NCBI RefSeq assembly: GCF_055900595.2
Contig: NZ_CM148325.1
Length of the DNA stretch: 64,000 nt
Direction: 5' to 3' (one strand)
Shown: piece after piece, positions 25,807 through 28,784 of the stretch
Numbering within the stretch: position 1 is the stretch's first letter
How the letters are laid out: every line of letters begins with the position of its first letter
The notes under the pieces: generated by a model
Databases searched by the model: none
What the model was told of the DNA's origin: nothing
What the model saw: the letters and a program-made list of their open reading frames with translations, nothing else
Made by a program: the position numbers and the translations under genes

Positions 25807-26307
25807 TCATGAATAAACCCCTTGCTCTATTCGAAAAATGAGCATGGCAACTTTCAACACCCCCTCTTCTGAGTCCATTATCTCGGAGGGCGTTTTCCAC
25901 TGTAATGCTCTGTTTGGTTCATTGCACCAGTTTAATGCTGCACTTTCGTTACCTTCAAAAAGATCAATAGCCTTTTGAAGAACATCATTTTTTGTCAGCA
26001 TGTTTTACACCTGAAGACGTTTTGAGTGCTTCGATAAGACTACTTCGCTCTTCCTCTGTCATCCGGGATATGAGCAATGCAAGTTCTGCTGTTGTCTGAT
26101 CATCACAAAAAAGTAGTTCAACGGCACGTTTAACTCTGCCGCCATCCGTCGAATCGTATCAATATCGGGGACATGGCGCCCTTTCTCATAATGATTCATA
26201 CGACTGCTAGCCGATGCGGGATCAAAGCCAACATGAAGAATTGATAATTGCCGTGCCGAGCAGAGAAAATGAATTCCGGAAACTTTCTCTTGAGCAAGAT
26301 AAAACAC
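25807..26307 (-). pseudogene. Disrupted Xre-family HTH gene with a C-terminal DUF2384-like (Xre/MbcA/ParS antitoxin-type) domain
   Basis: Two ORFs in the same frame (26059-26307 with HTH-like ...SRMNHYEKGRHVPDIDTIRRMAAELNVPLNYFF; 25807-26001 with ...ALNWCNEPNRALQWKTPSEIMDSEEGVLKVAMLIFRIEQG) are separated by in-frame stops TGA (26059-26061) and TAA (26005-26007). Another frame is open across the gap (CDDQTTAELALLISRMTEEERSSLIEALKTSSGVKHADKK), bounded by T6 and A7 homopolymers, which points to frameshift disruption. DUF2384 assignment is from recalled motif pattern only. Confidence 0.55.
26171..26233. repeat. Direct repeat copy A (63 bp), part of the Xre-like HTH coding segment
   Basis: Matches 28722-28784 at 59 of 63 positions, same orientation; the two copies bracket the LRR gene. 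Confidence 0.8.
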
Positions 26308-26415
26308 ATATTAAGATAAATAAAAAAATAAAAACACTGATTAGGATTGGTAATAAAAATATTACAATAAGGCAATGAATTTTAAAAAGGATTTGAAGTT
26401 TAATACAGTCATTAA

Positions 26416-26452
26416 AAAGAGAGGGCAAAGCCGACCCCGCCCTCTCCCTTCA
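26416..26452 (-). terminator. Minus-strand rho-independent terminator (GC-rich hairpin plus T-run)
   Basis: On the minus strand GAGAGGGC-loop-GCCCTCTC is followed by TTTTTAAT; lies ~500 nt 3' of the LRR gene stop and 5' of the Xre-like remnant. Confidence 0.4.
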
Positions 26453-26950
26453 TGCACTGATAAGCCTCACTAATAGGAGTGTTAGCAGCGCGTACCACTG
26501 TATGCTAGACCTGAAAAATATAATCTCAGTCAGTCCCAGATGCAACCTTTAACACTTCAACGCAACAAATTAAACAACGAATAGCCACAAACGTGTAGAC
26601 AGTGCACTGATACGGATAAAAGTAACGCTCCTGAATTGCTCAATCAATGATATATACCCTGTTTTACTGACATATCTGACAGCGGGTGGATTTCCTTCAA
26701 TTATTGATATAACACCACACGCACTACATCTGTCTCCACCAGAATATGAGGTGAAATTGTTGCGCACCGGTTAATCCGGGTGTACTGGTCAAACTGTTTT
26801 TACGGTGCGCCTGTTTTATAGCCTTCAGTTGCGCAATGCGTCGACTTCGCATGGTTTTCCTCATGACTGCCGCTTTACCATTGCGCAATTCGCCGATGTA
26901 GTCGGTGCCCCCCGGAAAATCAAACGGTTCTGGTTGTTCTCTGTACTGCT

Positions 26951-28477
26951 TCAGGGCGTATAGCCCGATACCTCAACAGACGGGTTTTCCCCGGAGCGAG
27001 GCCTCTGGGGTTCATAATTAATCGTACAGCCAAAGTACCAAGCGTTCGGCCGGCTGGGCGGCAGGCTGGGCTTGCTGGTCAGTTTGTTCCAACACACATT
27101 AAGCATCTCCAGTCCGCTGGGCAGGCGGTCCGGCAGGCTGGTCAGCTGGTTATGACTCACATCAAGCACCTTCAGCCTGACGGGCAGCACCGGCAGATGG
27201 ATCAGCTGGTTATTACTCACATTAAGCGTCCTCATATAGCCGGGCAGCTCCGGCAGGCTGCTCATGAGGTTAAAACGCACATCAAGCGTCACCAGCCCGG
27301 CGGGCAGCGCCGGCAGGCCGGACAGCTGATTATTACTCACATCAAGCATCACCAACCCGGCGGGCAGCACCGGCAGGCTGCACAGATGGTTTTTACACAC
27401 ATAAAGATGCTTCAACCCGTCGGGCAGGACCGGCAGGCTGTCCAGCCAGTTTCTTCTCACATCAAGCTCCTCCAGCCCGGTGGGCAGCTCCAGCCCGGTG
27501 GACATGAAGAGATTGTTTCCACCCACATTAAGGTGCTTCAGCCCGGCGGGCAGGACAGGCAGGCTGCACAGCCGGTTTCTACTCACATCAAGCTTCTTCA
27601 GCCCGTCGGGCAGGACCGGCAGGCTGTCCAGCAAGTTTCTTCTCACATAAAGCTCCTCCAGCCCGGTGGGCAGGACCGGCAGGCTGCACAGCTGGTTTCC
27701 ACTCACATCAAGCTTCTCCAGCCCGGCGGGCAGCTCCGGCAGGCTGGTCAGCATCAGATTTGCCAGTTCTAGTTCCAGTGCCGAAGCTCTATTGCATGCT
27801 CTATTGTATATATATGCCTTCACCCTACTAAGAGCTTCTGCCCTGTTTTCCCCGGGAGCATTTACCTTGGCCCAGGCACGCCATGCCGTTATCTGGGCCA
27901 CCCAGTCCGGGACTTTATCGATATACTTCCGGAGCAGTTTACAGTGTGGTTTATCGCCAGTCAGAGTTACAGACAACGCTACTTTTGGCATACCTGGTAT
28001 GTACATTGTCATGATGGGCTCATCGACGACGGACAGGTTCAGTAAGAGCCCTATCGGCGGGTCTTCCTTTTTGGCCGGGATGGTGTAAATATTGGGATTG
28101 TCTGTGGACTCGAAGCTCAGGAACATATTTGTCAGCTGCTCACTTTTGGTCAAACATTGATCGTGAAGGAGGGAACGACAAACCATGTGGATGAAAGTTT
28201 CTTCGGATGCGTTGTGTAATATGGTTGTATAATCTGATGAGGATAAATCATCCCAGTTTTCTATCTTGCTGGTCTTGCTGTTCTTGCTGTTCTTGCTGTT
28301 CTTGCTGGTCTTGCTGGCTGCGATATCGTTTAATGAATTGTTTAATAAATCGGTTAATACATAGCCGATATGAAGACGGTTTGCTGTCTGGCTGGATTTA
28401 TCGGGTGCCCAATATTCATTTTCATTGGGTTTAACATATAAACCGGATGCGCCGGATAAAGAAGTAGGCTGGAGCAT
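26951..28477 (-). CDS. Leucine-rich-repeat protein with an IpaH/SspH-type LRR domain, a ~230-aa N-terminal extension and no NEL E3-ligase domain
   Basis: 508-aa ORF with GAGG RBS 6 nt upstream. The segment DWVAQITAWRAWAKVNAPGENRAEALSRVKAYIYNRA...LELANLMLTSLPELP matches the conserved region that precedes the LRRs in IpaH/SspH/SlrP effectors (compare IpaH9.8 DYFSAWDKWEKQALPGEERDEAVSRLKECL..., from memory). About 11-12 consecutive 20-aa LPX repeats follow (L.SLPVLPxGLxxLxVxxNx). The ORF stops right after the last repeat, and no NEL-like sequence is found in any frame for 500 bp downstream. Confidence 0.8.
   Translation of the reverse strand: MLQPTSLSGASGLYVKPNENEYWAPDKSSQTANRLHIGYVLTDLLNNSLNDIAASKTSKNSKNSKNSKTSKIENWDDLSSSDYTTILHNASEETFIHMVCRSLLHDQCLTKSEQLTNMFLSFESTDNPNIYTIPAKKEDPPIGLLLNLSVVDEPIMTMYIPGMPKVALSVTLTGDKPHCKLLRKYIDKVPDWVAQITAWRAWAKVNAPGENRAEALSRVKAYIYNRACNRASALELELANLMLTSLPELPAGLEKLDVSGNQLCSLPVLPTGLEELYVRRNLLDSLPVLPDGLKKLDVSRNRLCSLPVLPAGLKHLNVGGNNLFMSTGLELPTGLEELDVRRNWLDSLPVLPDGLKHLYVCKNHLCSLPVLPAGLVMLDVSNNQLSGLPALPAGLVTLDVRFNLMSSLPELPGYMRTLNVSNNQLIHLPVLPVRLKVLDVSHNQLTSLPDRLPSGLEMLNVCWNKLTSKPSLPPSRPNAWYFGCTINYEPQRPRSGENPSVEVSGYTP
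27030..27760. repeat. Tandem ~60-bp nucleotide repeats encoding the LRR units
   Basis: Highly similar 60-bp units recur back to back (visible also as the periodic plus-strand pseudo-ORF THIK.LQPGGQ.RQ at 27152-27772). Confidence 0.75.
28265..28318. repeat. 9-bp tandem repeat (TCTTGCTGK x6) inside the 5' part of the LRR gene
   Basis: Six perfect or near-perfect head-to-tail copies, encoding SKTSKNSKNSKNSKTSK on the minus strand; in frame. Confidence 0.85.
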
Positions 28478-28721
28478 GATACCTCACAAAAATGTGTTGA
28501 TGAAAAGCCGGATTCTGTCCATATTCCCGTGAACCGGCTATCAAAATTCGCGCATTTTGCCAGGTATTCATGTGGTTAAAATTTATCTGGTGCGTTTCCG
28601 GTGGTTTTGCAGTTCACCAGCTACAATCGCTAGCAACGGCACATTTATACTCAACATAAGTTAAATCATATTGACTGTTAACTTACTTCATGAACCAAGA
28701 TGCATCGTCAATGGCGGCTTA

Positions 28722-28784
28722 ACATGGCGTCCTGTCTCATAATGATTCATACGACTGCTAGCCGATGCAGGGTCAAAGCCAACA
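28722..28784. repeat. Direct repeat copy B (63 bp) upstream of the LRR gene
   Basis: 59/63 identical to copy A at 26171-26233; encodes the same VGFDPASASSRMNHYE.GRHV peptide on the minus strand, then diverges to a stop. Confidence 0.8.

Follow-up and report, generated by a model that had tools for sequence, protein, structure and literature searches.

Background

The closest described systems to the locus analysed here are the GInts, short for Genomic Islands with three Integrases. In the published passages retrieved, these elements have an int-int-large-small gene order, carry their cargo after ginD and are bounded by imperfect att repeats of 10-17 nt (PMC5385486; PMC10214605). The passages of one of these sources locate the ginABCD operon at the element's 5' end, describe attL and attR as hybrids of attI and attB, and report that integration is site-specific and that the element is excised as a circle; GinC has a tyrosine-recombinase fold without part of the catalytic motif and is often annotated as hypothetical (PMC5385486). 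The hipA-ydeT interval is a published island integration hotspot of E. coli, namely hotspot #20 (PMC10121019). The GInt passages retrieved contain no description of a tandem arrangement.

Tandem accretion at one att site is known for ICEs/IMEs and genomic islands. A second element enters the att site recreated by the first, which gives a head-to-tail array where the conserved modules form long direct repeats that later decay or recombine.

In this article, we analyse a pair of ~63-bp direct repeats that bracket an LRR gene in a 64,000-nucleotide stretch of contig NZ_CM148325.1, referred to below as the window. A sequence-only reading had taken the repeats as a footprint of insertion by recombination or of segmental duplication that could mediate loss of the LRR gene. 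We conclude, with a probability of about 0.88, that two decayed tandem GInts each left behind part of the same regulator gene, and that the repeats mark the overlap of these remnants and are not the scar of an LRR insertion.

The repeat pair

The core copies A (26171-26233) and B (28722-28784) are direct repeats identical at 59 of 63 positions and lie on either side of the LRR gene, as the sequence-only reading had reported. They differ at 26179, 26183, 26218 and 26221; between the second and third of these positions lies the longest perfect run, of 34 nt (26184-26217). A repeat search of the window returned a single two-copy direct family, 26171-26239 and 28722-28790, of 69 nt at 91% identity; the six bases that extend the repeat from 63 to 69 nt (26234-26239) are part of a different gene and represent imperfect microhomology at a deletion junction. 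The origin of the repeats in an HTH-coding segment was also recognized correctly: both copies code for HTH sequence on the minus strand and correspond to the same codon positions in a single gene family, copy A within a remnant coding for residues ~29-110 and copy B within a fragment coding for residues 1-49. The weaker similarity said to continue beyond the core is not genuine, the ungapped identity of the 30-60 nt flanks being 18-40%, i.e., background.

Intact relatives and the empty site

The empty attB site is found in K-12, where the HTH gene is absent altogether, and the same attB is occupied in unrelated strains. An intact GInt at the hipA site of NZ_CP168035.1 is 23.3 kb long and has a 10-nt flanking repeat; comparison of the K-12 empty site with this island shows a 10-nt duplication around TGTTAAATCA. 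Its gin/HTH module and right end match those of the first of the two window elements, GInt-1.

The gene order of the intact relatives is int (466 aa)-int (516 aa)-788 aa-144 aa, where ginA and ginB are annotated as tyrosine recombinases, the 788-aa protein is in the GinC position and the small coiled-coil protein of 144 aa is in the GinD position. Sequence searches with the 788-aa protein of one intact relative, L004 (Pfam, PDB sequences, BLASTP against GinB, and NCBIfam/PADLOC/PHROGs), gave no recombinase match. Consequently, our assignment of the window elements to the GInts is based on the order of the genes, the structure of the att sites and the literature, and not on direct homology to the reference Gin proteins.

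Right after ginD, many E. coli GInts carry an accessory module that consists of a DUF2384 ORF, an HTH regulator of 110 aa and a divergently oriented 186-aa gene. The neighbours in intact modules are ginD and the gene of the 186-aa protein, which has a weak AbiEi match (E 7e-4), and the best match of the intact HTH allele is the PADLOC Control_protein (E 5.7e-26). The cargo behind the same gin/HTH module differs among L001 and L004-L008 (retron Ec78, ATPases, IS elements and others). At least four HTH modules occur within 50 kb in E. coli PSS-08-2, together with a junction of a right end and a left end, which indicates that tandem GInt arrays recur.

Anatomy of the array

The features of the array are the following (window coordinates):

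25210..25221, plus strand: attL of GInt-1, ATTATGTTAAAT, directly downstream of hipA; identical to the K-12 attB and to attL of the NZ_CP168035.1 GInt
25228..25665, plus strand: chimeric ORF, start of ginA joined to the end of ginD; remainder of the GInt-1 ginABCD operon, ginABC deleted
25807..26001, minus strand: DUF2384 ORF (MbcA/ParS/Xre antitoxin family, RefSeq annotation of homologues) in the accessory module of GInt-1; 97% identical to L001 at the aa level
25985..26233, minus strand: what is left of the HTH gene of GInt-1 (C-protein-like Xre), codons ~29-110
26171..26233, plus strand: repeat copy A, the final 63 nt kept from the GInt-1 HTH gene before the deletion junction
26233..26234, no strand: junction of a 588-bp deletion, L004 coordinates 4977-5564 missing
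26235..26378, plus strand: 3' end (47 codons and stop) of the 186-aa gene in the module of GInt-1; translation EELIIAVPSRENEFRKLSLEQ..., the C-terminus of the L004 186-aa protein
26379..26798, plus strand: conserved non-coding module sequence 3' of the 186-aa gene, shared with other GInts at 81-93% identity
26951..28477, minus strand: LRR gene, 508 aa, GInt-1 cargo; LPX-type 20-aa repeats, no NEL domain
28478..28666, plus strand: right (3') end of GInt-1, with the terminal 17 nt CTCAACATAAGTTAAAT at 28650-28666
28667..28702, plus strand: left end of GInt-2, CATATTGACTGTTAACTTACTTCATGAACCAAGATG, directly after the GInt-1 right end
28702..28722, plus strand: 21-nt ginD scrap of GInt-2, GCATCGTCAATGGCGGCTTAA; 20/21 to ginD of the L014/L018 lineage
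28722..28784, plus strand: repeat copy B, the first 63 nt of the kept GInt-2 HTH fragment
28722..28899, minus strand: GInt-2 HTH gene fragment, codons 1-49 (28867..28722) and 32 nt upstream
29170..31143, plus strand: ankyrin-repeat gene, 657 aa, GInt-2 cargo
31144..31887, no strand: debris on the right of the array, made up of fragments of HTH, IS481 and alpha/beta-hydrolase

The sequence is homologous to the K-12 empty site up to 25219 on the left and again from 31888. Within the chimeric ORF, 25267-25665 is 96% identical to ginD of intact elements, and 25222-25266 is similar to the start region of ginA. When mapped on the intact L004 module, window 25267-26239 corresponds to L004 4001-4976, 26233-26552 to 5565-5886, and 26582-26798 to 6606-6827. 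The 588 bp missing between the first two segments comprise codons 1-28 of the HTH gene as well as ~139 codons of the 186-aa gene, together with the divergent promoter region, and the microhomology at the junction is 7 nt long and imperfect. The identification of 26235..26378 as the 3' end of the 186-aa gene is supported by nucleotide homology as well as by its translation. The HTH remnant has also lost 1 nt from the A-run at 26107-26112. An insertion with a 63-69-bp target duplication, suggested by a three-way alignment, was rejected by the full mapping on intact modules.

At 28650-28666, the right end of GInt-1 and that of the intact NZ_CP168035.1 GInt agree at 17 of 17 positions, and only the terminal ~17 nt of 28478-28666 are shared with L013. 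The integration footprints are short att repeats around GTTAAAT, at 25210-25221 and 28655-28666. The left-end sequence of GInt-2 sits ~110-150 bp upstream of ginA in other GInts and matches the ginA-upstream sequence of one chromosome and one plasmid (95.7-97.7% over 44-46 nt); L017, the sole chromosomal GInt inspected with a left end of this kind, carries no HTH module. The lineage of the ginD scrap is the same one that matches the GInt-2 left end; the search that identified the scrap had an expectation of 0.04 random 12-mer matches. For the 19-21 nt that precede copy B on its left, an identity as diverged HTH sequence was also considered and was rejected in favour of the ginD scrap. The HTH fragment that follows (28722-28899) corresponds to L004 4908-5085. 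No right end or attR of GInt-2 was found in 31144-31887, from which we take the right boundary of the array to be eroded. A promoter and terminator scan of 28380-29250 gave weak consensus matches only and no terminator.

Among the defining features of GInts, the window thus has imperfect direct att repeats of the 10-17 nt class (attL at 25210-25221 and the GInt-1/GInt-2 junction at 28650-28666), variable cargo after ginD and a poorly conserved 3' end of 0.2-0.4 kb. A complete ginABCD operon at the 5' end is missing, and only the chimeric ORF and the 21-nt scrap are present in its place. Judged by their sequence, the two elements are degenerate remnants and not functional members of the group, and circular excision would not be expected with the gin genes deleted.

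The LRR protein has partial NCBIfam matches to SspH2 and SlrP, limited to the LRR region, and scores 184.7 bits against the SspH2 model, which has a cut-off of 1243. A NEL E3-ligase domain is absent, and the precomputed Pfam matches of close homologues are LRR families only. The nearest relatives outside E. coli are NEL-type E3 ligases of E. fergusonii, which have PF14496. Neither the LRR protein nor the ankyrin protein matched a defence system in PADLOC or PHROGs.

Other E. coli genomes with the island

The island was found in 17 of 5,426 complete E. coli genomes. Both repeat copies are present in 13 of the 17, and the other four have different deletions that leave no copy A and keep the LRR gene. 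Altogether, the sister genomes contain three independent deletions in GInt-1, corresponding to L004 4977-5564, 4853-5477 and 4673-5292. The GInt-2 HTH fragment 28722..28899 is constant in all 17. A distant blastn search of E. coli genomes yielded no other genomic context for the LRR cassette than the present island.

The sequence-only reading proposed that recombination between the repeats could remove the LRR gene. Such a loss is physically possible with 34 nt of perfect homology, but its product, an ankyrin gene without the LRR gene, does not occur in the 5,426 complete E. coli genomes. In strain N96 the LRR and ankyrin genes are both gone through an unrelated deletion spanning 26112..31656. 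We consider the repeats a by-product without evident function, and possibly a weak substrate for rare RecA-dependent deletion of the LRR gene.

Origin of the repeats

We propose that GInt-1, with the LRR cargo, and GInt-2, an element of a different lineage with the ankyrin cargo, integrated side by side at the attB downstream of hipA by Gin-mediated site-specific recombination at the GTTAAAT core, and this side-by-side integration would account for the GInt-1 right end abutting the GInt-2 left end at 28666/28667. Illegitimate deletions would then have removed ginABC of GInt-1 and the part of GInt-2 from its left end to HTH codon 49, with the exception of the 21-nt ginD scrap. In the lineage of the window, GInt-1 would have lost a further 588 bp, and with them codons 1-28 of its HTH gene and the greater part of the 186-aa gene. 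The survivors of the two orthologous HTH genes would happen to overlap by 63 nt, and this overlap is what appears as a direct repeat. The sequences show the anatomy of the array, its att junctions, the separate lineage of GInt-2 and the independence of the deletions found in sister genomes. We infer the order of the two integrations, and likewise that the deletions were spontaneous microhomology events.

A possible alternative is that a ~2.5 kb LRR cassette was inserted into an intact Xre/HTH gene and the 63 bp target was duplicated, either as a long target-site duplication or in a Campbell-type event via 63-bp homology. The intact HTH gene found elsewhere does equal the left and right parts of the window with a shared 63-nt overlap, so that a two-piece alignment resembles an empty site. 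An insertion footprint implies that removal of one copy and the interior restores the target and that the interior is foreign, and this is not the case here: the interior opens with DNA of the same module, namely the 3' end of the 186-aa gene located 588 bp further on, and the true empty site in K-12 has no HTH gene of any kind. The junction of a GInt right end with a left end and the ginD scrap, both located between the LRR gene and copy B, the occurrence of the LRR gene without copy A in four genomes, and four differences in 63 nt, unexpected for a recent duplication, also make this origin highly improbable. The sequence-only reading was right in placing recombination-based insertion behind the duplication, but not in having the LRR gene insert into the Xre gene. 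Chance or low-complexity similarity without common origin has a negligible likelihood, given that the 34-nt exact run, nested in a 59/63 core, occurs exactly twice in the 64-kb window (none in 100 shuffles), that the sequence is not of low complexity and that the codons matched by the two copies are the same ones in a single gene family.

The segmental duplication also suggested by that reading could have arisen as a tandem duplication in situ of part of one GInt, or by replicative re-insertion of the element next to itself, followed by deletions. Both HTH pieces are ~96% identical to the same reference allele and have the same orientation, which speaks for such an event. Against duplication in situ stands the GInt right end that abuts a left end in the interval from the LRR gene to copy B. 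The left end of GInt-2 differs from that of the hipA-site GInt in NZ_CP168035.1 (the left end of GInt-1 itself is deleted, so that this comparison is indirect); the ginD scrap, 20/21 with the L014/L018 lineage, is only 15/19 with the ginD of GInt-1; the LRR and ankyrin cargo behind the two modules are unrelated; and at two of the four positions where the copies differ, the variants are polymorphisms shared with different intact natural alleles (the number of sites is limited to two by the 63-nt overlap). We therefore regard duplication of one GInt as very unlikely.

The three independent deletions of 588-625 bp all take the same promoter and 5' regions of the HTH/186-aa module. It is conceivable, if rather doubtful, that the module serves tandem GInts as a homology platform for exchange or loss of cargo and is selected for inactivation after the loss of gin. 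If selection for inactivation did operate, these deletions would suggest that the module has a regulatory or addiction-like function. The LRR and ankyrin cargo, in terms of such a platform, are putative effector genes.

Implications

Two overlapping remnants of tandem mobile elements, as reconstructed here, call for caution in the interpretation of direct repeats that bracket a gene and resemble an insertion scar, and only mapping against intact elements and empty sites exposes such remnants. The repeat pair itself is a product of ordinary island decay. With this locus, the tandem accretion of GInts at the hipA-ydeT hotspot of E. coli is documented, as is their subsequent decay in situ, which fixes their cargo in few strains (17 of 5,426 complete genomes). 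In this case an ankyrin-repeat protein has been fixed, together with an LRR protein that is a relative of the NEL-type type III effectors.

Comparison with known systems

The LRR protein has LPX-type 20-residue LRR units in common with the IpaH/SspH/SlrP-type effectors and differs from them in three respects: it has no NEL domain, its scores fall far short of the family cut-offs, and its N-terminal ~250 aa are of an uncharacterised type. The window elements differ from published GInts in the missing ginABC, in their tandem placement and in their LRR and ankyrin cargo, which does not consist of defence, resistance or toxin clusters. In comparison with tandem accretion of ICEs/IMEs, the repeats of the window array have been trimmed by deletions to 63 nt, and recombinases are absent from both elements. 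Transposon target-site duplications and phage-like attL-attR pairs resemble the present case in that direct repeats flank accessory DNA; unlike these, the 63-nt repeats lie away from the element boundaries, which are marked instead by att sites of ~10-12 nt around GTTAAAT.

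Results

The direct repeats

The repeat search over 24-31 kb found one long two-copy direct repeat family (26171-26239 and 28722-28790; 69 nt, 91%). In its 63-nt core, copy A (26171-26233) and copy B (28722-28784) are identical at 59/63 positions, the mismatches lying at 26179, 26183, 26218 and 26221. The core includes a 34-nt perfect run, a 34-mer that occurs exactly twice in the window and 0 times in 100 shuffles. Both copies lie within HTH-coding sequence on the minus strand: in a tblastn search with the intact 110-aa HTH protein, residues ~21-111 aligned, through a frameshift, with 26259-25985, and residues 1-49 with 28867-28721. 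The sequence-only reading was therefore right about the existence, direct orientation and 59/63 identity of the repeats and about their origin in an HTH-coding segment, but the weaker similarity it described past the core is absent, identity in the flanks being 18-40%, i.e., background. Two of the four mismatches (C/T at 26179/28730 and G/A at 26218/28769) are polymorphisms that different natural alleles also show, which is compatible with two parental elements; the remaining two are seen in copy B alone. No function is evident for the repeats.

The HTH gene as part of an island module

An intact HTH gene is found in ~210 other E. coli genomes, and every inspected intact copy is embedded in one conserved block, consisting of two site-specific integrases, a 788-aa hypothetical protein, a 144-aa hypothetical protein, DUF2384/HTH (minus), a 186-aa gene (plus) and a cargo that varies (retron Ec78, ATPases and IS elements, among others). 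A recombinase fold was sought in the 788-aa protein by sequence methods and none was confirmed; GinC is frequently annotated as hypothetical, according to PMC5385486. The island of NZ_CP168035.1, an E. coli with an intact GInt (a genomic island that encodes three integrases, ginABCD operon) at hipA-ydeT, spans 23.3 kb between 10-nt duplicates of the empty-site sequence, which in K-12 reads ...ATTATGTTAAAT|CATGTCTGAG... In each of the three intact alleles with both ORFs annotated (L004 4543-5053, L001 and L021), the 110-aa HTH ORF shares 17 nt, in another frame, with the 64-aa DUF2384 ORF. The PADLOC model matched by the HTH protein is 'Control_protein' (E 5.7e-26), and the neighbouring 186-aa protein matches AbiEi weakly.

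Two probable degenerate islands in series

The window is E. coli-like in gene content, and hipA-ydeT is integration hotspot #20 of an E. coli defence-island survey (PMC10121019). The locus lacks the yneL region of K-12, homology to K-12 restarting at 31888.

Features of the locus and their counterparts in L004, a locus with an intact GInt module
ECSE_1600-type autotransporter, then hipB, hipA (23736-25115)
After hipA: 145-aa ORF, DUF2384 ORF, broken HTH gene, LRR gene
26951-28477, minus: LRR gene
Beyond the LRR gene: HTH N-terminal fragment, ankyrin gene (29170-31143), debris, ydeQRST-type fimbrial operon
attL at 25210-25221 to 28666: GInt-1, cargo LRR gene
25267-26239: L004 4001-4976; ginD, DUF2384, HTH as far as the core
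26233-26552: L004 5565-5886; 3' end of 186-aa gene and downstream region
26582-26798: L004 6606-6827; conserved module sequence
From 28667: GInt-2, cargo ankyrin gene
28722-28899: L004 4908-5085; HTH codons 1-49 and upstream region

Because window segments map to separated parts of the intact L004 module, copy A borders a 588-bp deletion internal to GInt-1 (L004 4977-5564). The 3' end of the 186-aa gene beyond it was verified by translation (EELIIAVPSRENEFRKLSLEQ...). The deletion junction, CAACA|TGAAGAATTG, has only an imperfect 7-nt microhomology, which is why the repeat seemingly reaches 69 nt. GInt-1 has also lost ginABC. The 145-aa ORF after hipA (25222-25665) is an apparent fusion of the ginA start region to ginD from ~codon 5; RefSeq labels its homologue a frameshifted hypothetical protein.

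The interval from copy B back to the LRR start codon contains three pieces in series. The sequence at 28650-28666 (CTCAACATAAGTTAAAT) matches the terminal right end of the NZ_CP168035.1 GInt at 17/17 positions, and there it adjoins the K-12 flank. Directly after it comes CATATTGACTGTTAACTTACTTCATGAACCAAGATG (28667-28702), whose region matches the GInts of NZ_CP061764.1 (chromosome) and p027_SK3a (plasmid) at 95.7-97.7% over 44-46 nt; its counterpart there immediately follows GTTAAAT and lies ~110-150 bp upstream of ginA, and these matches identify 28667-28702 as a GInt left end. The third piece (28702-28722, 21 nt) matches an internal ginD segment of the NZ_CP061764.1/p027_SK3a lineage at 20/21, compared with 15/19 for GInt-1 ginD (~0.04 random 12-mer matches expected). 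After this scrap comes copy B, where the HTH gene picks up again at codon 49. Since right end, left end, ginD scrap and HTH codon 49 follow in series, we conclude, with a probability of roughly 0.88, that the window holds two GInts placed head to tail and since decayed, of which the 63-nt repeat is a leftover. In GInt-2, all sequence between the left end and HTH codon 49 is gone, save for the ginD scrap.

No right end of GInt-2 was found in 31144-31887, its right boundary being eroded; this stretch contains pieces of another HTH gene, an IS481 transposase and an alpha/beta hydrolase. The lineage sharing the GInt-2 left end had no HTH module in the single chromosomal example inspected, and no intact parent of GInt-1 or GInt-2 was found among the E. 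coli genomes searched.

Variation among related genomes

The LRR gene occurs in 17 of 5,426 complete E. coli genomes and the ankyrin gene in the same 17, all of which (17/17) carry copy B. Six sister island loci were mapped over their full length, and all share the same GInt-2 fragment (L004 4908-5085) and junction. Three distinct deletions are seen in GInt-1.

Deletions in GInt-1 among carrier genomes
L004 4977-5564: 13 genomes, including the window type; copy A present
L004 4853-5477: 3 genomes (2017-02-2CC, 2013C-4282, WL297); copy A absent
L004 4673-5292: 1 genome (RMDEC465); copy A absent

The LRR gene is still present in all four genomes without copy A. These four keep sequence missing from the window type and therefore cannot be derived from it, so in the ancestor the GInt-1 HTH gene was intact and the repeat measured 178 bp. 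One later deletion reduced that longer repeat to the present 63 nt. All three 588-625-bp deletions (L012 6917, L010 6738 and window 26233/26234) take the same parts of GInt-1, namely the divergent promoter region with the HTH 5' end on one side and the 5' part of the 186-aa gene on the other; this common target of three independent deletions may reflect selection against the module, or coincidence.

In PSS-08-2 (L024, NZ_AP027679.1 2178000-2227900), at least four HTH/186-aa modules lie within 50 kb, with IS1 copies interspersed, alongside a GInt right-end|left-end junction of its own; this is a large tandem array, so tandem GInt arrays recur in E. coli. RMDEC465, 2020CK-00188 and EC42405 have an extra ~430 bp, missing from the window, between the HTH fragment and the ankyrin gene; in L010 (9509-9898) and L011 (9099-9488) it is annotated as the 129-aa hypothetical WP_032184246.1, for which no family match was found.

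The LRR and ankyrin genes

The LRR protein has LPX-type 20-aa repeats and partially matches SspH2 and SlrP over their LRR region. Outside E. coli, the closest relatives are E. fergusonii NEL-type E3 ubiquitin ligases (36% identity, 82% of query), which have a NEL domain whereas the LRR protein has none; it may be a truncated or NEL-less relative of type III effectors, carried as GInt cargo. Within E. coli, its homologues are 356 to 531 aa long; the LRR repeat number therefore differs between strains, and for this reason megablast broke up full-length matches. At least eight LRR units of 60 nt (20-aa, LPX-type) lie at 27095-27820. A short tandem run of TCTTGCTG[G/T] units at ~28262-28318 encodes KTSKNSKNSKNSK near the N-terminus, and its region varies by strain (964-1000 bp in subject genomes, 991-bp query). 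In the 5' part of the ankyrin gene (~29229-29255), ACTACAAAT occurs three times, encoding TTNTTNTT, and could be a slippage-prone tract. PADLOC defence-system models matched neither protein.

Discussion

The sequence-only reading took the repeats bracketing the LRR gene as the footprint of an insertion or of a segmental duplication. A three-way alignment with the intact HTH gene does resemble an empty site, with a 63-nt overlap common to both flanks. Mapping of the whole L004 module led us to reject an insertion scar in the HTH gene, as it places a 588-bp deletion edge there; together with the end-to-end junction and the four genomes that have the LRR gene and no copy A, it speaks against an insertion footprint of that gene. 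Bracketing and recombination-based integration stand, while the scar does not.

The repeats had also been proposed as a route to loss of the LRR gene. Homologous recombination over the 34-nt run could occur, rarely; it would delete the LRR gene and rejoin an HTH reading frame, which would remain frameshifted at the A-run 26107-26112. No such deletion product was found among the 5,426 genomes. N96, the one related genome without the LRR gene, lost 26112..31656 via an unrelated junction.

Two head-to-tail GInts thus remain our preferred reading, and the repeats are a commonplace side effect of mobile islands of a known kind integrating in tandem and then decaying. Tandem GInts are not mentioned in the available portions of PMC5385486 and PMC10214605. 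As defined in those portions, GInts have the same gene order, a cargo that follows the fourth gene, little conservation at the 3' end and imperfect att repeats of 10-17 nt, and the block around the intact HTH gene agrees with them in each of these respects.
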